Origin: Eledone cirrhosa
Lineage: Eukaryota
Direction: 5' to 3'
Length of the DNA: 64,000 nt
NCBI GenBank assembly: GCA_964016885.1
Contig: OZ024754.1
Span: 40,920,001-40,984,000 of the forward strand
Part shown: in pieces, positions 4,022 to 63,600 of the stretch
How positions within the stretch are numbered: position 1 is the stretch's first letter
Layout of the letters: each line of letters begins with the position of its first letter
Notes under the pieces: generated by a model
The model's input: the letters and a program-made list of their open reading frames with translations, nothing else
Told to the model about the DNA's origin: nothing
The model's database searches: none
Made by a program: the position numbers and the translations under genes

Positions 4022-4263
4022 AAAAAAAAAAAAAAAACAATCAACAAAAATTATTAAAAAACACATTAAGTGATCGTTTGAAGTATTTATTAAAATGAAA
4101 GCTACAAAATTATTTCAGTGAATTTTGTTGCAGAATCGAATGATGAAAAGTTGGAGTAAACATTTCTGTATTTTATGTAAATTAAATATTTCGACCTTTA
4201 AGTTTTCCTGTACCAGAGGAGATGAGATAAAGTACGAATAAAGACATTTTCTCTGTATTTGAA

Positions 4264-11829
<7,566 letters not shown>

Positions 11830-13291
11830 TCTTAATGTTTGTAATTTACAGCCGACACTCTACTTCAGATAAGCCTCTTCGTTGTTCTCGTTACACTTGT
11901 TGTGAATCCTTATAAACCCTAAACACATCTCGCTACTGTTGCAATCACTATTCTCATGTCATACGGCGAGTCCATTTCGACATTTTTATTTCTCCAATTT
12001 TTAACTTTATTTTTAACATCTACAGTTTTCTGTTTCGATTTCTAACAAATCTATAAATCATTTTCTCTTTTCCTCGCCAAATTTTAGAATAATGTAATTG
12101 TTGTTAATTTTTAAAAATTCTTGATAAAACTGTCGATGTTTATTCAATTGCTAACATTAACCATTTATTGAGATAAAATTTCAGTGATTGGCGATAATCG
12201 ATCTCTCTGTTTTCGATCTCAAATTGTAGTCAGACTTTTACTTCACTAAATTCATTAATGTCCGTTTTAAAGAAACAATCGTCACATCTTTCTGTTTAAC
12301 TTTTCTCCTGAGATGTAAAGCTTCTGTAACTGGTCAATATCAATTGATATTTGACAAAGTCTAACACTACACCATGAAATTCGTGAAATAATATATGAGC
12401 GAGACATTGGAGAGTTCAAAATCAAAATACTCCACAGCCTATATATCGAAGCAGACAACTTGACAGGTCTGTGTGAGAATCCTTTCAAATGTTTGCACGA
12501 GAAACACGAAGACTGCAGGGTTTCCTAGTCGAGTTACCATCCGCCCTACCATCGAGGTGGTGCAGGATATTAAAGGTTTTTAAAGAAGGACTTTCAGGAG
12601 CTCTGATAAAATGGACGAGGAGACTTTCTACTTGAAAAAAAAACACAAAAAAAAACACCAATCACCTCAACCTATCAGAATGACCATCACATATATTGGG
12701 ACTTTTAAAAAAAAGGGCCACTACAGAACATTGAATCAATATCCCATGGACTATGGCATTGACTTTAGATTGGCGATAACCACTGTCAAGGCTCAGAGAC
12801 AGCCAATGAACAAGATATGGGAGTATCTACTGACATCTCTGTTTTTAAAACGGACATTAATGAATTTAGTAAAGTAAAAGTCTGACTACAATTTGAGATC
12901 GGAAACAAAGAGATTGATAATCAATAATCACTGAAAGTTTATCTCAATAAATGGTTAATGTTAGCAATTTAATAAATATCGACAGTTTTATCAAGAATTA
13001 AAAAAAATAACAATAATTCCATTATTCTAAAATTTAGCGAGGAAAAGAGAAAATGATTTATAGATTTGTTAGAAATCGAAACAGGAAACTGTAGATGTTA
13101 AAAATAAAGTTTTTAAAAATTGGAGAAATAAAAATGTTTAAATGGACTCGTCGTATGACATGAGAACAATGGTTGCGACATATCTAATAGAAAATAGTGA
13201 TATGATTTATAAGGAGTCACTGAAGTGTAACGAAGAGGTTTATTGTATAGAGATTATCGGCTGTCTGAGTAAATCACAAACAACTTTAGTA
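11830..13291. promoter_or_regulatory. Putative shared bidirectional promoter region of copies 1 and 2, with inverted arms 11950-12277 / 12840-13167
   Basis: Divergent ATGs ~1.46 kb apart; ~330-bp highly similar inverted arms around a ~560-bp unique spacer. Promoter function is inferred from position. Confidence 0.55.
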
Positions 13292-15352
13292 ATGGGGAAA
13301 ATTTTATCGCAATTATTCGGGAAACGGCTATTGACAAACCGACATTTAATTTCTAAACGTGTCAGAGAGTCTTTTTCTAAAAGAAACCCCGAACAATTGA
13401 CTCTTAATTCTATTGGCGGGAGGGTTTATCCCTTTGAGAGTCTAGTATTTGAAGGGTGTGGTGTGAAGATTTACAGTTATTTTGGCGCCCTCAAAGTAAG
13501 ACATTATTCATAATTTGAAACTGTTTTGTTTTCATTTACTAAAGGTGTACATTTTTGTTGTCAGTTGTCCTGATCTAGGCATTAACAGCTACTTTTATTT
13601 AAATGTGAATCGATTCCCGAAAGTAATCAATATAGGTGTGGGTATTAGAATATAATTTCTCTGAACGAGACTCAATATTTAGACTTGCCGTATTTCCCGG
13701 GGCCGAAGACGCTTCGTCCTCGAGGACGCACCCTAATTTTGACAACCAAAAATTTGAAAAAAAAAAAAAATAAATAAACCACCTTCGGCCTCCAGGACGC
13801 ATGGTAGATGTTTGACATATTTTAGGAAAAAAAGTAGCGCCTTCGACGCCGGGAAATACGGTACATCTATATAGCTCCATAAAACAGGATTGGTCCTTTA
13901 TTTATTTATTTTTTTCGTTGACAGGTATTAGAAAGAACCGGGATCTTAAATAACATCAAACGGTTTGCCGGTGTTGGTACCGGTGCCTTTATAGCTGCTC
14001 TGGTAGCTTTTGATTACAATAGCGATGAAATACAAACTTTGTATAGCGGCCATTTGCTAAACGTATTGACAGGTAAGTTCTCTCATATAATTCCCAATAA
14101 CCTATATCTAAATGTTTCAATAATCCCAGTGGCTGGTGATCTCTGGTATCATGAATCCGAATTATGTCATTTCTTAGATAAAGCAGACGATATCGGACAA
14201 ACGTAATTTCGTCAGGTTAACTTTTGTGAAATATATTTTCCTCCATGAGGCTGGTTTATATTTTTGAGACTTATTGAGAAGGGCTTCGTTTACCCAAACA
14301 TAAAAGAAAAAACTATCGTTGCTATAGTTTACCCAAACATATAAGAAAAAAGTATCGTTGCTATAATTTACCTTAACATATAAAAGAAAGACTTCGTTGC
14401 AATAGTTTACCTTGACATATGAGAGAAAGACCTCGTTGCAATAGTTTAACCCAAACATACGAGAAGTATCGTTGTTATAATTTACCCCAAACATATGTGA
14501 GCTTTCATGCTCTTGTATGACTCGGTATTTTTATTTAATAATACCATCAAACCTCCTTGACTCATTCTAGTTAGTCGTAGTATCATTCACATTATATTTC
14601 ATCTTTTCTTGGTATCAACACATCTGTTACTTTACTGACAAATACTGGACAGTCAAGACATTTGGTTACATTTCTCTGATAATTACATGAATGTATTAGC
14701 TTTTATCCTACAATTTACTTGGGATTGTTTTTGTATTCGTTTAAACGTGTACGCACAATTTATTCCAGATTTTTCTCTAAGATCTAAATTTCTTTAATTA
14801 TCAAACTTCTATACTTCAGATGAGCGAACTAATTTAAAACGGCAGGGAAATAATCTGATCCAATTCTATGGCTGGTATCTCAGAGTATGTTTTCATAACT
14901 GGATTGGAGATTTGATAAAATCAAAGTTTAATGATAGGGAGCTCACATTTGGAGAGGTAAGACGTAAAAATATGTAAGGTTTGTGTATTAGACATGCGTT
15001 ATATATATATATATATACACACACACATACGATAGACAAGAGAGGCCACGTGTTGTCCCTCTCCGACTAAAAACTTCCCCCTCGGAAAACCCCCAGTTGA
15101 TGGATGCGAAATCCGAAATATAGGGACAATTAAATCACTTCCAAGGTAACTCTATCTCGTGTTATTATTTGTACACTCTTTCCTACGTTCCTCTACATCC
15201 TATACATCTCATTCAACATTTCCTCTTACATCTCTCTCTTTACCACCGGATTCAGTTACCTGGAGATTTACCCATCTGCATTGCTGAGGCTTCCAAAACG
15301 ACCAGTTTTATTATTCCACAATGCTTCAAGCAAACTTCAACACTCTCGTATG

Positions 15353-15396
<44 letters not shown>

Positions 15397-15554
15397 CACA
15401 CTAATGCTATTATGGAATCGATGAAATTGGTATGCACACTTTTCCTAGATATAACAAATCTCTTTAAATATTGCAAAGTCTGAATGTCCAAAACCAGAAA
15501 TGTTCGTTCCTATTGCCAGATCTGTGCATCTTTCTCTTTCTCTCTTTTTCTCTT

Positions 15555-15587
<33 letters not shown>

Positions 15588-15675
15588 TTTTTCTCTCTCC
15601 TCTCCTCTCTCTTCTCTCTCTCTCTCCTCTCTCTCTCTCTTCTCTCTCTCTCTTCTCTCTCTCTCTTCTCTCTCT

Positions 15676-15719
<44 letters not shown>

Positions 15720-18700
15720 TCTCTCTCTCTCTTCTCTCTCTCTCTCTCTCTTCTCTCTCTCTTCTCGCTCTCTCTCTCATTAAACGAAACTACATTTCTT
15801 TTTTAGTTATACCGATTGACAGGCAAGGAGCTGTGCATTGTTGTCACCAACGTCAACACACAACGTGAAGAATATTGTCACCCGAAAACTACCCCTAATC
15901 TTCGGATTACTACTGCCATTGTAATAGCTATGGTATTTCCAGGTTAGCATCACTTGTCAATATACAGGGGGGGGGGGGGGGGGGGGGCGTAAGTCGTGCA
16001 CCAAACCATTAAAAACAATTTAGTGTACATATTTAATACAGTTAATGTTAAGCCATTTAATGCTTTGTGAAGGTGCATGGCTTAGTGGTTAAGGCATTGG
16101 GCTTGCAATCGAAAGGTTGTGAGTTCAATTCTCGGACCGGGTGATGTGTTGTTTCCTTGAGCAAGACACTTCATTTCACATTGCCCCAGTTTACTCAGCT
16201 GTAGAAATGAGATGATAGGGACTGGGGTCCCTATCATTTAATTACCCAAGACACTTCCAACGAGATATACCTTGGAGGGGGGCCAGCTAAACCTTCATAG
16301 GTGTGAGCTGTCGCACACATTTAATGCTTTGATACGCGACTTAAGGCCCACTATGTATATCAATTTATCGAATCCATACATTTAACCATATTAGCTATTA
16401 TCAGGCCGGGTATTATCCCCAGTTTCCTTGGCGCTAAATGACAGAGTACAAGACTGTCTGGATAGGACGTTTGTCTATCGCAGGATTAACTCCTCACTCT
16501 CAACTGAGTGTACTGGAGCAATGTGAAATAAAGTGTCTTGCTCAAGAACACAACACAGCAGCCTGTCCAGGAATTGAACCAACGGTATTACGATCGTACA
16601 GCAAGTATCCTAAGCATTAGATTGCTAAAGACGAGGTAGTCACAACTAGAATACCTTTCTGAACATGTACTTCGTGAGATGACCTGTGGCTAAACTTGAC
16701 CGTAACGTGAATCTGACCTGGTCAATATAATACATATATCTAACTAGAAGTGAGATGACCTGTGGCTAAACTTGACCGCAGCGTGAATCTGACCTGGTCA
16801 ATATAATACATATATCTTACTAGAAGTGAGATGACCTGTGGCTAAACTTGACCGTAACGTGAATCTGACCTGGTCAATATAATACATATATCTAACTAGA
16901 AGTGAGATGACCTGTGGCTAAACTTGACCGTAGTGTGAATCTGACCTGGTCAATATAATACATATATCTTACTAGAAGTGAGATGACCTGTGGCTAAACT
17001 TGACCGCAGCGTGAATCTGACCTGGTCAATATAATACATATATCTTACTAGAAGTGAGATGACCTGTGGCTAAACTTGACCGTAACGTGAATCTGACCTG
17101 GTCAATATAATACATATATCTAACTAGAAGTGAGATGACATGTGGCTAAACTTGACCGCAGCGTGAATCTGACCTGGTCAATATAATACATATATCTAAC
17201 TAGAAGTGAGCTGACCTGTGGCTAAACTTGGCCGTAGTGTTAATCTGACCTGGTCAATATAATACATATATCTAACTAGAAGTGAGATGACCCGTGGCTA
17301 AACTTGACCGCAGCGTGAATCTGACCTGGTCAATATAATACATATATCTAACTAGAAGTGGGATGACCTGTGGCTAAACTTGACCGCAGCGTGAATCTGA
17401 CCTGGTCAATATAATACATATATCTTACTAGAAGTGAGATGACCTGTGGCTAAACTTGGCCGTAGCGTGAATCTGACCCGGTCAATATAATACATACATC
17501 TTACTAGAAGTGAGATGACCTGTGACTAAACTTGACCGCAGCGTGGATCTGACCTGGTCAATATAATACATATATCTAACTAGAAGTGAGATGACCTGTG
17601 GCTAAACTTGGCCGTAGTGTGAATCTGACCCGGTCAATATAATACATATATCTAACTAGAAGTGAGATGACCCGTGGCTAAACTTGACCGCAGCGTGAAT
17701 CTGACCTGGTCAATATAATACATATATCTAACTAGAAGTGGGATGACCTGTGGCTAAACTTGACCGCAGCGTGAATCTGACCTGGTCAATATAATACATA
17801 TATCTTACTAGAAGTGAGATGACCTGTGGCTAAACTTGGCCGTAGCGTGAATCTGACCCGGTCAATATAATACATATATCCTACTAGAAGTGAGATGACC
17901 TGTGGCTAAACTTGGCCGCAGCGTGAATCTGACCTGGTCAATATAATACATATATCTAACTAGAAGTGAGCTGACCTGTGGCTAAACTTGGCCGTAGTGT
18001 TAATCTGACCTGGTCAATATAATACATATATCTAACTAGAAGTGAGATGACCTGTGGCTAAACTTGACCGCAGCGTGAATCTGACCTGGTCAATATAATA
18101 CATATCTTACTAGAAGTGAGATGACCTGTGGCTAAACTTGGCCGTAGCGTGAATCTGACCCGGTCAATATAATACATACATCTTACTAGAAGTGAGATGA
18201 CCTGTGGCTAAACTTGACCGCAGCGTGGATCTGACCTGGTCAATATAATACATATATCTTACTAGAAGTGAGATGACCTGTGGCTAAACTTGGCCGTAGC
18301 GTTAATCTGACCCGGTTAATATAATACATACATCTTACTAGAAGTGAGATGACCTGTGGCTAAACTTGACCGTAGTGTGAATCTGACCTGGTCAATATAA
18401 TACATATCTTACTAGAAGTGAGATGCCCTGTGGCTAAACTTGACCGCAGCGTGGATCTGACCTGGTCAATATAATACATATATCTAACTAGAAGTGAGAT
18501 GACCTGTGGCTAAACTTGGCCGTAGTGTGAATCTGACCTGGTCAATATAATACATATCTTACTAGAAGTGAGATGACCTGTGGCTAAACTTGACCGTTCC
18601 TTTTAATAATTTAATATTCATTTGTTTCCAGGTACTTTCACTCCATTAAAAATAATCTCTGGGGAAATGACAAACTACTTCTTGGACGGAGGAGCAATCT

Positions 18701-19721
18701 GCAACTTCCCATTACATTGCTTTGATGGTGAGTAACGATGTGCGAAGACTTCCCCTGGATAGGACGATTATCAATATAATTATTTCACATTGCCTTTCTC
18801 TCTTTCTCTTTCTCTCTTTCTCTCTTTCTCTCTCTTTCTCTTTCTCTCTGTATATAAGTATTAATGAATATATGTACATGTTTCTAGGTTGGTGGTTATC
18901 CATGAAACCTGACGATTCCTTCTTTGATCAGTTGAACCCAGTTTACGATCGTTGTAGTTTCAATATGCAGAAATTCCAAACTCCAAATCCAACTACTTTG
19001 GGACTCCTGACGGTGAGTTGAATGTTAAAATGTTTATATTAATGGCTGCCAATGTTTGGTTAATGGGTCTTGGGATTATATCAATGGTCCAGTTTGGTTG
19101 GTGTTAAGTGAGACTTAAACATTTCTTTTATTTCTGATAGCTTGACGACTCTTGTGACTGTGAGTCGTACCAAGAACTGAACAACAGAGTTCAACAAATT
19201 GAAGCAAATAACTCCATTCCACGGACACAAATTGGACAGTAAGTTGAATCGTTTTTTGTCGAATTCAGCAATCTAATAAATCTTTTTTCATTTTGTTTGA
19301 CTTGGTCAGATGCGGAACGGAAGCATCTGGGAGCTTTTTCAGGCTCCTCCACACTGCTGAGAGAAAGTTAGTCTGCAGTTTTACAGTTTTAAAAGTAACT
19401 ATATCATTAGGTTAAATCGAATAGGGATATTACAACGATGATTATAATTTTTATCAATATAAATTTCTGATTTTTATCTTACTTTGAAGATTTCTCATTA
19501 ACATTAGTTTTTATATTCTCATTCCGGGTTTAATTTCGATTAAAACATTAGTTTACTACAAGTATTTAAGACGATACATATAGTTGCTTATTTTTTAAAA
19601 ATATTATTCTTACGATGTTACTCCATTAGCAAATACACTAACCAACAAGGTAGAAGAGAAACAGCAAAGACAGAACACAATATATTTCGTACAGCAAGTT
19701 TCAAACTTAGGCAGGTAAGTA

Positions 19722-19754
<33 letters not shown>

Positions 19755-22031
19755 TTATGGTAGCTTTCGTACTTTTCCGAATTGAGATCAAAGCTCTGAT
19801 ATTACAGATATGTGGTTAGAATGTCTCAGGAAAGAACCACTGGACCGATTTGTAGCTCTGGAGATCAGTAACTCCAGGTAGAGCCGCTACTTCTCTGAAT
19901 TGAGAGATCTCAGCTCTGTTACTATGGACATGTTTAGAATGCTCTGGGAAAGAATCCTTGGACAGATTTTACAGGCAAAATCAACTGGCAGGAGACTCGG
20001 GGGTAGACCTCAAGCAAGATGGTTGGATAACATCCATTAGCTTCGCTGGTCTTGCTTGGGGATCCAGCCGGATCAATTGGAGATGATTGCTTCTGAGAGG
20101 ACCCGCCGGAAGGAGTGTTTGAGGACTCTCCACGGAACATTTTGTATCCTAATTTGTGAACAATAGCGTCGTAGGTTATAATTTTCCAAGAACTTAATCA
20201 CTGGTTCTCAGCATTTCCGAGGGCGTGTCAAAATACTCGGTAAAAAATTATAGAAAGACACCGTTCAGATTTTCGGTCTTCTTGCTGGTATTTATATCTT
20301 TCATCACCAATATATATACCTGAAAAAAAAAATATATATGCAGGTACACAAATATAGTATAAGTATATATTTTATATGTATAATTTATGAGCTTCCGAAC
20401 AGTTTCCATTTAAAAAAAATTTCTCTCACAAGGAATTGGTCTGAAACTGATAGACAAGTTACACACACACACAGGAAACAAACTAGACTATTGCGAGGAG
20501 AACTCGACCACACATCCTTCCCTATAGACATTTCTAATAGTTGTATTTTAAATATTTCTTATACAGATTAATTAGTTACGTATCTTCAGACAACCGAGCC
20601 TATTTTTTTCTAAAATTTAAAAGAATTCTTGATTTATAACTTAAATCTTTGTTAGATTCTAAATATGTAATAAAACCTGATCCGAATATATCGTCTGTAT
20701 TATATTTGTAGCTACTAGAAGAAATAAGAGACGGCGACATTCTACCAATGGAGGAATTTATACAAGCCTTAATCAATGTATGTAATTATGTCTAAATTGT
20801 TTCACAAGTAATAAATTATTTCATGTACCAGTAACAAGTCTGAAAATAGACAACTTAATGCTAGAACAGAACTTTAATTCTTAGCTCTCCTTTCATTTTT
20901 ATTTGAGGGGGACCAGTCAATTAGAAATTGTTTTAAAAGATTCTCTTAGACCGGAATAGGAATAACTGAGGCTAATTTTAGTCGGACGTCTGAGAAATGT
21001 GACATAGCTCTTGGGGTGGGTGGGGTGGTCGGTCAATACGGGGTGGAGTATTTAATATCTTGGCGATAATGTACATAATTTCCAAACATTTGAGATTTTC
21101 AATAGACAAAATGGAACAGAATAGAAAACTAAGAATTTTTAGACCATTTGATCTTCTATAAACTATATTTTATTGGCAATCTTTTAACGGATTCTCCAAA
21201 TAAAATGTTAGATGTTCTCCTTTCAGTTTGCAGCAGATATTTAAATGTCAACCATTACTGAGTTCGTATCAATTTATCATTTCAATAGGGATGCACCTTA
21301 GAGATAAGAGAGATACAACTTTTATTTGGTTGCACGGAAGTTAATCGGGAAACCCTCTACCAAATCATAGAACCTTTAGCTCTGAATGGTGAGGTAAGTA
21401 GAGCCAAACCTTTTAGTAAGAAGTATTACAGATTCTGGTAGTTAGTATAACGACTCTATTTACTCTTTATAATTTCAGCTCAGATATAACCACATGATGT
21501 GCTATATCGAGTTAAAAGATGTACTTCACTACCAGAGACATTTTACAGCTAGGTCAGATGTACAGAACTTGCTTTCTTATTTTGGCATCGTAGCAGACAT
21601 TGTAAACCGACAAAACAGCTCTTTCACGGTGAGCATGTTTCATATCTCTCTGTATTTCGTCCAAATATGTTCCTATCTCTGGATCCCAGACCAGAAGTTA
21701 AAATGTTGACATGATCTCAGAAATTAACTAACGTTTCTTTCTAATTATTAGAGGAGTGATGTTGATCGAACAATAGCTATTTACACTGGCCATATTAACT
21801 GCAATGACTTGAACCTGGAGCAGGCTGATCAAATCTACCTGATTCGGGTGAGATATTTTACTTTCACATTTTAACGTTGATCTGCTTTATCTATTATCTT
21901 TTTCTTAATTTACTAAATATCACTTTTTCTTTTTTCCACCTTCCCCCTCTTCCCTGGAACAGCAAGGATGGAATTCTACCGTTGCTTATCTTCGATCGTT
22001 TGGAGAAAATCAAAACGGTCAAAACATTTGA
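13292..22031 (+). CDS. Patatin-like protein copy 2 (predicted pseudo-phospholipase), 13 exons, ~504 aa
   Basis: Exons: 13292-13495, 13925-14072, 14820-14956, 15807-15942, 18632-18727, 18888-19012, 19141-19238, 19630-19714, 20712-20777, 21289-21393, 21479-21628, 21752-21847, 21963-22031; GT-AG, open frame. Motifs FESLVFEGCGVK, KRFAGVGTGA, TGKELCIVVTN, FLDGGAICNFPLHCFDGWWLSM. Confidence 0.9.
13686..13863. mobile_element. Tc1/mariner (pogo/Tigger-like) MITE in intron 1 of copy 2
   Basis: Terminal inverted repeats CCGTATTTCCCGG...CCGGGAAATACGG with TA at the right flank; absent from the aligned intron of copy 1. Confidence 0.75.
14290..14495. repeat. Degenerate ~39-bp tandem repeat, about 5 copies
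   Basis: Recurrent TCGTTGC[TA]ATAGTTTACC..AACATA. Confidence 0.8.
15528..15779. repeat. (CT)n-rich microsatellite just upstream of exon 4 of copy 2
   Basis: Directly visible. Confidence 0.97.
16674..18597. repeat. 76-bp minisatellite, about 25 copies, intron 4 of copy 2
   Basis: Unit GTGAGATGACCTGTGGCTAAACTTGACCG[CT]A[AG]CGTGAATCTGACCTGGTCAATATAATACATATATCT[AT]ACTAGAA; starts at 16674, 16750, ...; no unique spacers. Confidence 0.97.
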
Positions 22032-23196
22032 TTCAAATACAGAGAAAATGTCTTTATTCGTACTTTATCTCATCTCCTCTGGTACAGGAAAACTTAAAGG
22101 TCGAAATATTTAATTTACATAAAATACAGAAATGTTTACTCCAACTTTTCATCATTCGATTCTGCAACAAAATTCACTGAAATAATTTTGTAGCTTTCAT
22201 TTTAATAAATACTTCAAACGATCACTTAATGTGTTTTTAAATAATTTTTGTTGATTGGTTATTTTATTGATATCGATTTCATATCAATTCGAACCCTTGA
22301 AAGATTTAGACACATTGGGTGTGTATTGTGTATACATTGCTATAGCTTGGTTTCTTATTTCTGTTACGAGCCGCCTATTCTCCGCAGTAATCTCATTAAT
22401 TCGTCGAAACTGCCGGAGGTTGAGATTGGAAGAGCATATTTTAGTGTTTGTGACCTGTTCGCTTCCATCCATTATTTTTTCCTCCATCCTATCTTCTCTT
22501 CCTTTCTTCGAATCAACCCACATCGAGCCACTGATCTGTCCTTCAAGGTAATATTTTACCCAGCACCGCTTCGACGGTATTTTGCTGTTCTAACAACTTC
22601 TATACGCCGAATTTTTCCCATTTTCCTGAGGAGCATTGTTTTAATGGTAAATGTTCTGGAAAATTCACTGGATTCTACAAATGCTGAATGGTCTTAAGTC
22701 GAAACATTTACTGGAAATTGATTAGTTTCAGGGATTTAATGAATTTTTAATAAAAATAAAACAGTTTTACCATATTTCTTATGAAACACAGCTTGTGATT
22801 TTTAAATTCAAAATCAGTTTAGTGGTTTCATAGTATAACGCATTGATGTTTTATATGAAATAATTGTTTCTACTTTAGGCGCATGGCCAGCAATTACCCA
22901 GTACATTACTGGTACTTTATTTTATCGACCCCCGTAAGGATGAAAGGCAAAATTAACCTCGACGGGATTTGAACTCGACGTAACTATGCTGGAAAGTATG
23001 GCGTCCGACCCTCTGCCGATACTGCCAATTCACCGCTCTTTTATATCAAATATTAGATTCGTTTGCAAGCAAACAGCCTCATAACGCTGTTTTAGACGAC
23101 CGTCATCCTTTTTGTTCGTTTTCGTTTATTTGGTCTTTGGAAGATTTTATATAAAACTACAATAACATTAAAGCATGATGGAATTTTTATTATTAT

Positions 23197-26856: not shown

Positions 26857-28947
26857 ATGGGAAGCGGTCAATCCAATACGTCGCGCCTTGCACGGCACTC
26901 CGGTTCTGAATCAAGCCCAGGACTCTTGCGTCTCTCTAATCTCGTCAATAGACATTATCCGTTCGAGAATCTTGTTTTTGAAGGATGCGGCGCCAGAGGA
27001 CTTGCTTATGTTGGAGCAGTGAAGGTAATATTTCAAACATCTTCAATATTTCACAATCTTCCCCACATATTCTATCGAGAAGCTAGTAGCTGGAAATGTC
27101 AATTTATTTTTCTCATTTCCTATGACAGCTGAACTTGATACTAAACAAATTCTTTTCTTGGGTTTATTGCCATTTTTACCAACGCAATATTCACATGTTT
27201 CTTGGTTTCAAATTTTGGCTTATACCTTAACTTAGTAATGGTGCCATCATTTTACTTAGTCAACTTATTATAGCGTTATGCTTGTACAAAATAAAAAAAA
27301 TCTTAAATTTTAAAATTTCATTGCGTTTTACTTTAAGCCAGGCATGTCAAACAAAGAGTCCCCGAGAGCCACATGAGTCACATGTGTTGTCTGAGGGCCA
27401 CATGAGTCACATGTGTTGTCTGAGGGCCCCACATGACAACTAATTGCGCACATTACAGCAAAACAATTATTTTTATATTACGGTCACGCTGTAAAAACCT
27501 TTATGCGGGCCGCAGGTGTGTTGTAAGGGTCGCATGTTTGACATGCCTGCTTTAAGCCACGTTATCTCGTAACTATTCCTTTATTTATTTATTTTTATTT
27601 ATTTTTAATAAAAAAAATAATAATCTGGTTATTTTTGTAATTTTACAGGTTCTCGAAAAAATTGGTGTCCTCTCTAATATTAAGCGATTTGCGGGTGTTG
27701 GCACGGGTGCCGTGGTGGCTTGCTTGTTGGCTACTGGTATGGACTGTTATTCTATGCAAGAATCACTTAACCAACACTTGGAAAATTTGCTTGCTGGTAA
27801 GTATGTAAATTACGTACGAAAAATAGATTTAGTTAAACCTCCTTGAAGCTAACTTTGCACGAAGCTTATTTGAACTATATTTGACGTATAATTTGTTAAA
27901 AAAAAAAACTATTTTTGTGAGAAAGTGACTGTTCAGGGGTCAAATAAGTTTTCCGAAACCGGAGAAATCGCGGTTAATATTCGTTTTGAACTGTTTTCAT
28001 GCGTAAAGTGAATTTTCTAGAATTCTTTATATTTTGATGTAATGTTTTAATATTGTTGGAAACTTGTGAAGTTTTACATATTCTGAATCTGAGGGGTGGG
28101 GCTTGTGATGGTGGTAGGGAAGTCTATAATTGAAACTCTCATTTTGTCGATTTCCAGACAATCGGTGCAGCAACGAAGTTCTACTTGATGAATTACTTCA
28201 TAACTTTGGTTGGAATAGCGGCGATAAATTTCTTGATTGGTTTGGGTCTCTTCTGGAGGAACAATGTAATAACGCCGACATAACATTCCAAGAGGTGAGT
28301 GCATTTTTTTTTTTTTATTTTTTTTTTTTTATTTTATTTATTTATTTATTTTTTTTTTTTATCTTGGCAGACACTAACTTAGGTTATCCATAACGAATAT
28401 TTAATATAGAAAAGGCTTCTACGGGACTAGAACTTTCATTCGTATGAAATCACGAATACGCATTCCTAATAACTTCATACGAATGAAACTGTTCTAGTCC
28501 TGTAGAAGCCTTTTTCTATAATAAATCTTTGTTCTCACTCTGTATTAAGTACCTTACTGTCGTTACTCCCGATTCTACCCGGAATCATAATCCACTGAAA
28601 CATGTGACCCGTAGACAACTGATGAAGGGAGAAATGTCTCTTTTTGTGTTCCCTAATATATATATATATATATATATATTAGTGGATATATATTATATAT
28701 ATAATATGAGCGTTGAAATATCCGAGAGACTCCAGAATACGACTGACAAGGACCCCCCCCCCCCCGTTCTTGCTTTCTTCTTACTCTCATTCCATTTTTA
28801 AGTATGTGTGTATGTATATGTGTGTGTATATGTATATATATATGTCGGGTCACCAGTTGGTGCTACTGGTAACATGTATCCCAGTACAACCCATCTCGTG
28901 GTCGGCTTGTTGGTGACTAAACTGGCAACCCCACTATATATATATAT

Positions 28948-28978
<31 letters not shown>

Positions 28979-29004
28979 ATATATATAATATATATAATAT
29001 ATAT

Positions 29005-29036
<32 letters not shown>

Positions 29037-29052
29037 TATATATAATATATAT

Positions 29053-29106
<54 letters not shown>

Positions 29107-29176
29107 AACATAACGGATTAAAGTTTAAGAAAAGAATCGCTGCTTTCACCCTTTGGGTTTTAGTCTTCAAATTTAT

Positions 29177-29219
<43 letters not shown>

Positions 29220-32050
29220 TTCTACAGGACTAGAACCGTTTCATTCGGGGGAAATCATCAGGTAACCCATTTATATATTAAATATTTATATTCTATGTAT
29301 TGAGTACCTTACTTACTGTGGTTACCTTGTATGAGCTTGTGTGTGTATATATTTTCCAGTTGGTATTCAATATTATGAACATTTCTTTTTATTTCCTTTT
29401 CTTTGGTATTTCAGCTTTATTTTAGAACCGGCAAGGAGCTGTGTGTTGTGGCTATGAATCTAAACCGCATGCGGGAAGAGTACTTCCATCCAAAGACCAC
29501 CCCTAATATCAGCGTCCGTCGAGCAGTTCTTATGTCTATATCTATTCCTGGTAAAGCTTAACTTTCGTCAGATTTGTATTTCGATTGATGAATTAATGTT
29601 TCATGTTAAGAACTCCCGTGGCTGGCATTACTGAGCTACATGACCAATAAATTTGTTGGAAGGGCAAGCCGATTATATTGATCCATTCCATTATTTAACT
29701 AGTACTTATTTTATCGATCCCGGAATGATGAAAGGCAAAGTTGACTCTCACGGTGAGATTCGAACGCTAAACGTAAAGATTTGAAACGAATATCTCCATG
29801 ACATTTTGTTTCCCAGTTCTGCCAATCTACCCCCCCCCCCAACCCTCATCTGTAACTGAAGTTAATATTCACTGCTCAAAGAATCTTCCTATCTCTAACA
29901 GCGAGTTTTTATAGAAACTCTTCAGCTTCTACAATTAGTATATTGAATTCTACTTGACCATAATTTTTCTAAGATATTCTTTTCGAGCAATGAAACTGCT
30001 TTTATTTTTTTTTTTTATTTTTTTTTTATTATTATGCAGATCTTATTTTGATGGACATAAATATAATTGCCTTTAGGTGTATTGGTACCAGTTGAAGTTT
30101 TGCCAGATTCTCTCTACTTAAACTACATGATCACTAATACTCTTAAGTATTGTTGCTAGCTAATAATTCTTGTAATTCTTTACGCAAAAAGACTTTATTT
30201 TGTGAATGGTTTCTCCTAATTTCTGGCGTTATTTCCAGGTATACTTCGTCCCGTAAAATTCAGCTTAAATGAACCTACTCAAGACTTCTACTTAGATGGA
30301 GGAATTCTCTGCAATTATCCCATCCACTGCTTTGATGGTGAGTACAACTAGGTTTCCCTAAATATTGAACTTGTAACACATTTGTAATGAATTTGTAATG
30401 GTGATTTAATTTTTTTAACTTGTAGGTTGGTGGCTTTCCATGAAAACAGGGAAGAAAGTCTGTTATAAATCTCAAACGATTGCTGACTTAAAGGCTTCGA
30501 TTAGGGGTCGATTTGCTGAATTTAACATCAAAACCATTGGATTTACTTTGGTAAGATATATTAGTAAATAGTCGAACTTAATTTTAGAAAATCGCTTCTG
30601 AACATTCTAAGAATATCGATTCTGAGTTTTGTCAATCGGTTTTAACTGAATGGCTATAATTGAATATTTTAATTGGTCGTATGTTTTATTTTCTCCACTA
30701 GTTCGATGAATACCATCGTTATGATAATTTGTTGTACAGTGTGATGAAACGGAGACTAGATCATACGAGAGCCGTAATTCCGATACCAGCAACCGAACTT
30801 GGCAGGTAGGGATTATTAAATACATGTAGCTAAAACTGGTAACTGAGATATATTCAGATATTAGCTCTTCTTTTTTTTTTTTTTTTTTTTTTTTTTCTTT
30901 GTGTCCACCCGTTTAATGTTTGTGTACATATATACATATATACATATATATACGCATACATATACGCACACTGAATGGAATGAACTCAATAGACAAGGAT
31001 ATGGTCTGACCGTGGAAGAACCGAAACCCCAGTCATCGCCTCCATTGCTTAGGCTTTCCCTTTCCGAGCAGACATTTTGACTTCCGCTACATATAAGTCG
31101 GAATCACACACATTATTCAAGACATGACCACTCACTTGACAAATGAAGTTTGTGCCAAACTTCTACACTTACCCACCAGAGAAATCGTCTTCTATAACTT
31201 TTTTTTTTTTTTTTTTTTTCTCTTCCACTCATCAACTTTGAATAGTCTTCTCCCTTTTCCCAAACTTAATTCAAACATCTCTCTCCTCAATTCCTAATAA
31301 TCGCTAATGTTAAACAAATAGAAACTTTGAAATGTTTCTCTAGGCACAGAAATAAAATCTTGCTGTTCTTACAACTAATTTGTAAGGATTTAGTGTAGGT
31401 GTGATTTCTTAGCATATTTTTGTATATATTTTACATTGATAAATCTTTATTTCCTAGAAAATACGTGGATCGTTTGATAAAAGAGGAAGAATTGAAACAA
31501 TCGTTGGATATATTTCCAGAAGCTCTAAAAAAGCTGAAGACAGTAAGTTTGTTAAAATGACACTCTAACAATCAACTAAAATCTAGTTTGATCTATTCAG
31601 CAAAACACTTTCTAGCTATACATTCGTGAGTTTTATAAAAACTTATCCGCTGTTTGAGCGAAAAACGAAATTCTAACTTCCTATTTATATTTTTAGCTTT
31701 TGGACGCAATCAAAGAACGTGATAACTTAGTGTCTATTGAAAAATTGGAAGAGAAACTGACGAGTGAGGTAAGGATATTACATCTCTTGTTAGATTAGGC
31801 TCTACTGATTACATTTTAAATGTTGGTAGAATTCCGTTTATCTAAATTTTCCTATCTTCATTGATTGTTGCAGGACTCTAAATTCACTTCGTCAGATATT
31901 GAAGCTTTGTTTGGCGTTGAAAAAAGCGAAGAGAAACGTATTGAAATTTTACAGAAGAATGCCGGTGACCAGAAGATGGTAAGTTAAGAATTTGGTCTTC
32001 GTTAGTTGCTCCGATTTCTCTTTATTTTCTTGTCTGCGAGGTCTAATAGT

Positions 32051-32090
<40 letters not shown>

Positions 32091-60678: not shown

Positions 60679-63600
60679 TATATTTTCCAGCGTCAGTTCC
60701 TTCAGTTTCTACAACAACAACAACAACAACAACAACACAAACTATCAGAGAAATAAACACTTTGTATCCTGTCGGTATGTCATGATTGCTTTAAGACAAT
60801 TTTAATATCTGAAAGAATTAATTGTAAATATAATATAATTGTTTCTACGTTAGGCACAAGGCCAGCAATCACCCAGTGTATTACTGGTACTTTATTTTAT
60901 CGACCCCGTAAGGATGAAAGGCAAAGTTATAATATAATATAATATAATATAATATAATGATATAATCAACATTCCACTCACCATAAAATTACAGGCCATG
61001 TGTCTAGATTAGAAATAATTAAGTATGGTGGATTGGCAGAATTGGTCGAGCGTCAGATGAAATGCATTGCAACATTTCATTACGGCACTGTACATTCTAG
61101 TTTCAAATCCCACCAAGGTCATCTTTGTTTTTCTTCCTTCCAGGGTTGATAAAAATACTTGTTTCTTCTTTTGGCACAAGGCCAGCAATTACCCCAGTGC
61201 ATTACTGGTACTTTATTTTATCAACCCAATGCATTACTGGTACTTTATTTTATCAACCCCAGTGCATTACTGGTACTTTATTTTATTGACCCCCGTAAGG
61301 ATGAAAGGCAAAGCTCGCCTCAGCGGGATTTGAACTCAGACCGTAAAGGGGCGTAACTCTATGCTACAAAGCATGGCGTCAGACCCTCTACCAATACTAC
61401 CAATTCACAGGTTTGATAAAATAATGTGCCAGTTTAATGCCTCAATTAGAAATCATTATTATTTCTAGGCAGTGGATTGGCAGTATCAGTAGAGCGTCAG
61501 ATGCCATGCTTTGCAGCATAGAGTTATGGCCCTTTATGGTCTGAGTTCAAATCCTACGGGGTCGATAAAATAAAGTACCAGTAATGCACTGGGGTCAATT
61601 TAATCGACTTTCCTCTCCCCCAAAATTGATGGCCTTGTGCCTATATAAGAAACCAATATTTATATTAAGATTGGGCAACAGAAACGTTGGGTCCTTGTTC
61701 TGCATTTTAACTTGGCCTTTCCACTTTCCTTAGGTTGAGGGAGAAACTTAATTCCATGTCCAGTCAAAGACTAGCTTGATATTAACGTCTTCACTTGTAC
61801 CACCCAAATATGTGGCCCAGGTCCTAGATGGCTTTGTGTCTAAGTCAGAAATCCTTATTATTGTGTAGTGCTCAGGTGCACTACAACTCATCAAAGGTGC
61901 ATGTATAGTACATAGAATCATGTAGAAATGTCTGGAAAGTGAACAGTGTATGAGTCATGATATACATGTGTGCGTGTATATGGAGGGGGAATATTAGGTG
62001 TAGTGTTGGCGAATTTCAGGAAGCATGGAGGTTTTAAAGGATGCAGTGTCTCGACAGCTAACAACTGATGCAGGTAGTTTGTTCCATGGAGGTTTTAAAG
62101 GATGCAGTGTCTCGACAGCTAACAACTGATGCAGGTAGTTTGTTCCATGGAGGTTTTAAAGGATGCAGTGTCTCGACAGCTAACAACTGATGCAGGTAGT
62201 TTGTTCCATGGAGGTTTTAAAGGATGCAGTGTCTCGACAGCTAACAACTGATGCAGGTAGTTTGTTCCATGGAGGTTTTAAAGGATGCAGTGTCTCGACA
62301 GCTAACAACTGATGCAGGTAGTTTGTTCCATGGAGGTTTTAAAGGATGCAGTGTCTCGACAGCTAACAACTGATGCAGGTAGTTTGTTCAATGGAGGTTT
62401 TAAAGGATGCAGTGTCTCGACAGCTAACAACTGATGCAGGTAGTTTGTTCCATGGAGGTTTTAAAGGATGCAGTGTCTCGACAGCTAACAACTGATGCAG
62501 GTAGTTTGTTCCATGGAGGTTTTAAAGGATGCAGTGTCTCGACAGCTAACAACTGATGCAGGTAGTTTGTTCAATGGAGGTTTTAAAGGATGCAGTGTCT
62601 CGACAGCTAACAACTGATGCAGGTAGTTTGTTCCATGGAGGTTTTAAAGGATGCAGTGTCTCGACAGCTAACAACTGATGCAGGTAGTTTGTTCCATGGA
62701 GGTTTTAAAGGATGCAGTGTCTCGACTGCTAACAACTGATGCAGGTAGTTTGTTCCATGCTTCAGCAACTCTGAGCGTGAAAAAATGTTTCTGAAAGTCA
62801 TTTCCTTTTTGTCATTCAATTTGCAGCAGATCAAACAATTATCATGAATTTACCAACTAAAAAGAAATCGTTCATCTGGTTTTACATTGTTGGAGCAATT
62901 TTTCTTCTTCTGTTAGTGTTGGCTTTTCTGCTGATCTTAAAATGTAAGTAAAACATTTCTTATAGGATTATTTTGGGCACAGAATCATCATCATCATCAT
63001 CATGATCATCACCACCACCACCAATACCATCACCACTACCACCATCAATACCATCACCACTACCACCATCAATACCATCATCATCACTACCATCATCATC
63101 ACTACCACTACCACCACCACCACTACCATTATCATCATCACCACCATCACCATCACCACCACCACCATCATTATTATCACCACCACTATCATCACCACTA
63201 CCATCATCACCCCCTACCATCACCACCACTACCATCACCACCACCATCATCACCCCCTACCATCACCATCACCACCATCATCATCATTACCACTACTACC
63301 ACTACCATCATCACTACCATTATCATCATTATCACTACCACCACCATCACTATTATTATCACCATCACTATTATCATCATCACCCCCACCATCATCATCA
63401 TCACCACCACCATCATCATCATCATCATCATCATTTAATGTCCACTTTCCCAACACATGATCCAGCCATCTCATTCTATTTCTCTTCCCACTACTCATCA
63501 CTAGCTCTATTCTCATCACTCATTCACTTCCATCTTTCCTCAACAGATCAGTCAAATACACTCAGCATAAAACAGTCATCACCTAAAAACAACAAAAAAC

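Follow-up and report, generated by a model that had tools for sequence, protein, structure and literature searches.

The four genes analysed here belong to an old, expanded and fast-evolving clade of probable pseudo-phospholipases in octopods, in which the catalytic serine of patatins has given way to glycine. The window, a stretch of 64,000 nucleotides (C14:40920001-40984000) from the 3.0 Gb genome of Eledone cirrhosa, holds four patatin-like paralogues, each intact and with 13 exons encoding 492-528 aa. With little more than even confidence, we read their products as catalytically dead, membrane-anchored and calcium-blind proteins whose effect would be to dampen or direct the Ser-bearing phospholipase encoded in the same genome. 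Patatins are described as requiring a glycine-rich loop, a GxSxG elbow and DGA/G (PMC12871566, as far as accessible). The window genes possess DGG and lack both GxSxG and the GGGxK/R loop. Judged from their sequences, they are patatin-fold members of an invertebrate patatin-EF-hand lineage that would not qualify as active Ser-Asp enzymes.

The spliced models of all four copies have GT-AG introns throughout and reach their first stop within the last exon (Table 1). All four start with Met-Gly, as do 12 of 16 database members; the start of copy 2 is uncertain, with an in-frame ATG upstream at 13142. Copies 1 and 2 are arranged head-to-head, and copies 3 and 4 lie next to them on the plus strand. 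An inverted repeat (20481-22268 vs 4027-5804) extends over 1.8 kb at 96.4% identity, introns included, whereas the 5' parts of copies 1 and 2 are only about 80% identical. Between these two copies dS is 0.064 in the homogenised 3' part compared to 0.48-0.51 upstream. Their 3' ends were likely homogenised recently by gene conversion between the arms.

Table 1. Positions of the four patatin-like genes and of their active-site motifs in the window.
Feature	Position	Strand	Description
Copy 1	4264-11829	-	13 exons, 496 aa
Copy 1, loop	11712-11692	-	EGCG
Copy 1, elbow	11035-11009	-	RFAGAGTGA
Copy 1, Asp motif	8449-8438	-	DGG
Copy 2	13292-22031	+	13 exons, 504 aa counted from the Met-Gly start
Copy 2, loop	13442-13462	+	EGCG (six-frame motif scan)
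Copy 2, elbow	13961-13987	+	RFAGVGTGA (six-frame motif scan)
Copy 2, Asp motif	18685-18696	+	DGG (six-frame motif scan)
Copy 3	26857-32878	+	13 exons, 528 aa
Copy 3, loop Cys	26986-26988	+	in place of the second Gly of the oxyanion loop
Copy 3, exon 2	27649-27796	+	148 nt, AG/GT borders
Copy 3, elbow	27685-27711	+	RFAGVGTGA
Copy 3, elbow Gly	27700-27702	+	at the position of the nucleophile Ser (scan and alignments)
Copy 3, elbow Thr	27703-27705	+	clade-fixed Thr following the Gly (scan and alignments)
Copy 3, Asp motif	30295-30303	+	DGG in exon 5, catalytic Asp position
Copy 4	39331-43548	+	13 exons, 492 aa
Copy 4, loop	39427-39447	+	EGCG
Copy 4, elbow	40042-40068	+	RFSGVGTGA
Copy 4, Asp motif	41581-41592	+	DGG

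An initial annotation of the window had described the catalytic Ser as replaced in all four paralogues, the loop as EGCG instead of EGGG, DGG as intact, and the codons of the new residues as synonymously diverged. Our data bear this out in every point. A six-frame scan found LVFEGCG, the elbow G-V/A-G-T-G and DGG in each of the four genes, with the elbow sequences as described. The elbow Gly codons of copies 1 to 4 read GGT, GGT, GGC and GGT, and the loop Cys codons TGC, TGT, TGC and TGT. In all four genes the loop takes the form G-C-G-x-K/R and retains its basic residue. R69, G72, G76 and A80 are not separated by any gap in the alignment to homologues, nor in that to VipD and ExoU. Since the elbow aligns gap-free to Ser-bearing homologues and to these two active enzymes, the Gly does sit at the nucleophile position, and canonical Ser-Asp chemistry is removed, as had been proposed. 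A register shift by one residue, which would make the Thr the elbow nucleophile, finds no supporting indel. The replacement is no chance variation: among 128 aligned homologues of at least 300 aa, the nucleophile position was occupied by Ser in 114 and Gly in 12, with one mis-spliced row and one gap; the 283 rows obtained after a profile search comprised 231 Ser, 36 Gly, 2 Asn and 14 gaps. The loop Cys occurred in none of the 235 Ser-bearing rows, which had Gly in 228 cases, a gap in 5, and Ala and Ser in one each.

An assembly or sequencing error is ruled out by identical motifs in three Octopus species and Argonauta and by contigs covering the exon: contigs from public runs, which may derive from the assembly's own sample, span exon 2 of copy 3 with zero differences. 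No Ser-bearing alternative exon 2 was present among the four exon-2 matches in the window, and the nine matches genome-wide consisted of six with Gly and three with Ser. A-to-I editing can make a Ser AGY codon read as Gly, never the reverse. Rescue by RNA editing was rejected, as the elbow Gly codons cannot be turned into Ser.

The best named matches were octopod proteins of O. bimaculoides, O. sinensis, O. vulgaris and Argonauta hians, annotated as uncharacterised or PNPLA-domain proteins. The name 'NHL repeat-containing 2-like' carried by O. vulgaris records is given no support by Pfam. The next matches belonged to an invertebrate patatin + EF-hand family found in molluscs, cnidarians, a sponge, echinoderms, hemichordates and amphioxus, together with bacterial relatives. 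Among the bacterial and metagenomic sequences, P0311 (Cystobacter), P0305 and P0316 have the full patatin + EF-hand length of the animal family.

A careful tree of 69 selected rows, calculated with the motif columns removed, contained a Ser-less clade of 22 rows (13 octopod and 9 ENA/Logan proteins) with a support of 100/100, and FastTree applied to 267/284 rows recovered the identical clade. Copy 3 was placed with O. bimaculoides LOC106880002 (P0006), O. vulgaris P0005 and Argonauta P0004, and copy 4 with P0001/P0003; copies 1 and 2 formed a separate long branch. As the initial annotation had supposed, the change thus predates the duplications, and it is far older than the cluster.

Further members were found elsewhere in the genome. 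A fifth intact Ser-less gene with 13 unbroken exons at C14:6862640-6871355 (EGCA, GIGSG, DGG) groups with P0026/P0027. It lies 34 Mb from the cluster. As its O. sinensis relative bears a gene number next to the one of the relative of copy 4, a rearrangement may have taken place. A partial duplicate of copy 3 at C13:39934051-39935475, with three exons and 93% identity over 1.4 kb, is dead, carrying a frameshift and an in-frame stop. In total, the genome contains at least five intact Ser-less copies and one dead fragment. An orthologue of P0011 was looked for in E. cirrhosa and not found, a result to be taken as a lower bound. Three tandem Ser-bearing genes (EGGG, GASAG/GASTG, DGG) are located at C2:111.16-111.39 Mb.

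Several features tie the Ser-less genes to these Ser-bearing ones. The motif GWNxxV near the C-terminus is shared by 21 of 21 clade members compared to 8 of 173 full-motif proteins, and these eight all belong to the same branch as the octopus Ser-bearing genes. Exons 2 and 3 (148 and 137 nt) have the same lengths as in the Ser-bearing C2 gene. Exon 4 is a single exon of 235 nt in the Ser-bearing C2 genes versus two (136 + 96/99 nt) in the Ser-less genes, a difference that would represent an intron gain or loss. Common descent with the invertebrate patatin + EF-hand family is evident from the nesting among animal members and from the shared exon lengths. A recent bacterial transfer is rejected, as the 13 exons are common to the window genes and the animal gene. 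The Ser-less and the cephalopod Ser-bearing clades were joined in the quick tree, and the careful tree left this node open. Because of the shared GWNxxV motif and exon lengths we regard the Ser-less clade as the probable sister of the cephalopod Ser-bearing genes and infer a duplication in the cephalopod line. The ENA/Logan proteins are sister to octopod proteins in the Ser-bearing and Ser-less branches alike. A coleoid origin of the clade would fit, and the clade is likely coleoid-wide.

Separate losses of the Ser were seen in the family in Patella P0123 and P0143 as well as in P0190, P0201, P0203, P0216, P0218 and P0241, most of which have no Asp either. Limpets and one or more further branches have therefore undergone a similar loss.

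The active site was compared between 12 non-redundant octopod plus 9 sister proteins (n=21) and 173 full-motif proteins. Gly replaced the nucleophile Ser in all 21. The catalytic Asp, which the initial annotation had considered kept, is indeed present in 11 of 12 octopod proteins; for the clade as a whole (12/21) this does not hold, as only 1 of 9 sister proteins has it. The loop Cys was found in 11 of 12 octopod and 2 of 9 sister proteins, and the loop Lys/Arg in 12 of 12 and 3 of 9. Block III is eroded: its Arg is missing from the entire clade (0/21 vs 156/173 full-motif proteins), and its Ser remains in 11/21 vs 166/173. Directly after the lost Ser, all 21 proteins carry Thr or Ser, a position at which the 173 full-motif proteins have 4 Ser and no Thr. 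Of 12 Ser-less rows that do not belong to the cephalopod clade, 5 also have Thr or Ser after the elbow. The initial annotation had overlooked this fixed residue, as well as the missing EF-hand loops, the Ser-bearing copies elsewhere in the genome and the precedent of plant pPLAIII enzymes.

As a more speculative option, it had raised the possibility that the loop Cys acts as a relocated nucleophile or redox switch; our counts weaken the idea of a rewired Cys-Asp site. In a broader form, the relocated nucleophile or acyl acceptor operating with the Asp could be either the Cys of the loop or the Thr behind the elbow, which would yield an acyltransferase or hydrolase dependent on cysteine, or else a redox-gated lipid sensor. 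We consider this very unlikely. The Cys is derived, and in the model of P0006 it lies just before helix 45-60 beside the loop Lys, a place in which its thiol could be acidic. Cys and Asp, however, coincide in no more than 10 of the 21 clade members, and the Asp is lost in 8 of 9 sister proteins, which makes a rewired Cys-Asp site improbable. P0011 combines Asn instead of Cys with a retained Asp, and P0027, P0069 and P0286 have the Cys without Asp; the Asn of this one octopod branch would suit a helix cap. As retention of the Asp is confined to the octopod subclade, a Cys-Asp dyad is not the common principle of the clade. In octopods alone such a dyad is conceivable, since the Cys is derived, close to the pocket and kept across paralogues with saturated dS. 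Nevertheless, octopods conserve 65 of the 196 domain columns to the same degree as Cys and Asp, so that a Cys in 11 of 12 proteins is not exceptional. An octopod site rebuilt around the Cys, which would be activated by helix start and Lys and paired with the Asp, into a cysteine-dependent and calcium-independent enzyme that accepts or passes on an acyl chain, or into a redox-gated lipid binder, deserves equally little credence. The Thr after the elbow opens helix 75-84 in the model. It persists in proteins without Asp and is also found beside an intact Ser in one C2 copy (GASTG). The elbows of potato patatin and iPLA2-beta read GTSTG. We read the loop Cys and the Thr as residues that start helices and fill the pocket, not as nucleophiles.

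The patatin fold itself is preserved. PF01734 scored 49-85 bits in eight of eight clade proteins (cut-off 27.7); window exons taken singly fall below the cut-off. The model of P0006, the orthologue of copy 3, reached a pLDDT of 91.3 and a pTM of 0.90 and matched CapE, VipD, PlpD and potato patatin at Z 23-25. By contrast, the EF-hand loop pattern was found in none of the 21 clade members compared to 132 of 173 full-motif proteins, and Pfam EF-hand matches in 0 of 8 clade proteins versus 4 of 4 Ser-bearing ones. Residues of about 316-410 of P0006 gave middling matches to EF-hand proteins (Z 6-7).

These features suggest the following scenario for our preferred reading of dead, membrane-anchored regulators. 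A calcium-regulated patatin-EF-hand gene would have been duplicated early in cephalopods, and one duplicate would have lost the Ser and then the EF-hand ligands together with the conserved Arg. The Met-Gly start is probably myristoylated, which would anchor the proteins to membranes. The pocket for the lipid head group may be partly preserved in octopod copies, in which the loop Lys/Arg and the Asp are retained. The proteins could work either through occupation of lipid in the membrane or as partners of the active enzyme.

Loss of the Ser from patatins has precedents. TgPL1 of Toxoplasma gondii lacks the Ser and PLA2 activity, yet is functional, and has been proposed to bind phospholipid or to assist other PLA2s (PMC10513453, as far as accessible). 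Like the window genes, it is a patatin-like protein that lost the Ser and kept the other catalytic residues, and the window genes likewise combine absence of the Ser with an intact gene under selection. In contrast, TgPL1 is a single parasite protein, and the accessible part of its description has no loop Cys, EF-hand remnant or multigene expansion.

The plant pPLAIII enzymes carry GxGxG and are reported, in secondary statements, to retain acyl-hydrolase activity (PMC7284883, PMC7031755, PMC4623698). Absence of the Ser is thus no guarantee of inactivity. As in the octopod clade, some members of this old multigene clade have kept the Asp and others have lost it, whereas the anion loop is intact (DGGG), according to the accessible parts of these sources (PMC7031755, PMC4623698). 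No plant protein was among the named matches, and the Ser loss in pPLAIII would be independent of the octopod one. By analogy, the octopod proteins could be residual, non-canonical hydrolases in which Asp, loop Lys and the oxyanion backbone activate water or allow slow acyl hydrolysis or transfer. Octopods do keep the Asp (11/12), the Lys/Arg (12/12) and the loop Gly43, and the activity reported for GxGxG pPLAIIIs (PMC4623698, PMC7031755) lends this some plausibility. We still regard it as unlikely. A Cys side chain is placed where 170 of 170 full-motif proteins (as selected) carry the oxyanion Gly, both block-III residues are eroded, and the sister proteins have largely dispensed with the Asp (8/9).

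The parent family, represented by O. vulgaris P0080, oyster, Haliotis, Nematostella and Branchiostoma proteins and by Cystobacter P0311, is uncharacterised. It resembles the window clade in length, architecture, exon lengths and the HPKTTP and CFDGWWLSM blocks, the best matches being 35-39% identical to P0006. It differs in keeping GGG, GxSxG, the block-III Arg and mostly the EF-hand loop. The closest solved sequences are VipD (4e-21) and ExoU (8e-19), and the folds of VipD, ExoU, PlpD, CapE/CapV and potato patatin matched at Z 18-25. Loop, elbow and DGG of the octopus genes are in gap-free register with these solved patatins. All of them are active Ser-Asp enzymes turned on by partners or ligands (for VipD and ExoU: PMC12871566, as far as accessible). 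The octopus genes, in contrast, are spliced nuclear host genes with an EF-hand-like insert. The structural alignment spans residues 31-412 of VipD and 50-420 of ExoU, and its end in VipD falls before the Rab5-binding helices. Our literature search, with most subscription journals outside its coverage, found no paper on the Ser-less cephalopod clade or its gene identifiers, and none on the invertebrate patatin-EF-hand family. While Ser-less patatins are already known, this clade stands out by its expansion in octopods, by the Cys in the loop and the Thr fixed behind the elbow, and by having lost calcium sensing as well.

Selection was analysed as dN/dS (NG86, bootstrap) in the patatin domain. 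The ratio was 0.43 between copies 1 and 2 (bootstrap 0.28-0.61; 1 or above in 0 of 300), 0.18 between copies 4 and 5 (0.09-0.28) and 0.06 between copies 3 and 4, the last being a rough value because dS is saturated. For copies 1 and 2 it amounted to 0.76 (0.29-3.11) where their 3' sequences have been homogenised. Domain identity between presumed orthologues was 62-75% for Ser-less and 89-95% for Ser-bearing proteins, and the path to the Octopus orthologue was 0.40-0.54 versus 0.05. Ser-less orthologues thus diverge 7-10 times faster than Ser-bearing ones. The genes are maintained by purifying selection, under much looser constraint than the Ser-bearing enzyme. Open frames and dN/dS below 1 confirm the suggestion of the initial annotation that the losses are maintained.

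Raised rates, the loss of catalytic and calcium motifs, and the value of 0.76 in the 3' part of copies 1 and 2 might be taken as signs of functionless duplicates in decay. This is scarcely credible in view of frames that have stayed open at saturated dS in five genes and several species, with dN/dS well below 1. The truly dead C13 copy, in comparison, was already broken by a frameshift and a stop codon at a divergence of about 7%. A pseudogene reading is rejected in view of the open 13-exon frames together with dN/dS below 1.

The long branches, the presence of at least five intact copies beside one dead fragment, and VipD and ExoU as nearest solved sequences would also suit a role in immunity or host-microbe interaction. 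Inactive copies, diversifying by birth and death, might absorb inhibitors or lipids of microbes or imitate the patatin effectors of bacteria. We judge this distinctly unlikely: dN/dS exceeded 1 in no domain tested, none of the starts resembles a signal peptide, and likeness to VipD and ExoU is common to the whole family including its Ser-bearing members.

Pairing of the dead regulators with the active enzyme was addressed by structure prediction. The O. vulgaris pair of P0080 (Ser-bearing) and P0005 (Ser-less) scored 0.50 compared to 0.00 for the best of three controls, with at least 53% of contacts shared between runs and a partner pLDDT of at least 75. Of 157 solved pairs, 116 reach the pair-score mark, as do 2 of 215 mismatched ones; scores of at most 0.60 account for 18 of the 157 and for both mismatches, and close relatives are a case outside this calibration. 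These predictions weakly support a heterodimer of the active and the Ser-less protein. Ser-bearing rows were common to both pair alignments, so that a general self-association of the family could yield the score. Moreover, divergence as fast as that between Ser-less orthologues is unlike what would be expected of a fixed partner of a very conserved enzyme.

As Ser-bearing and Ser-less paralogues reside in one genome, they lend themselves to an unconfounded comparison that could tell whether patatins with GxGxG are dead or, in line with the reports on plant pPLAIII, still active. The same set also tests how pseudoenzymes regulate lipid signalling.

Repetitive sequences were also present in the window. 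ORF remnants at 35559-36005 (+) and 52510-52863 (-), for which no Pfam match was obtained, are similar to the restriction-like endonuclease region at the C-terminal end of non-LTR retrotransposons. A minisatellite of 76 bp x 25.4 occupies 16674-18597 within intron 4 of copy 2, and others were located at 62024-62759 (61 bp x 12.1), 58381-58759 (48 bp x 7.9) and 1-372 (34 bp x 10.9).
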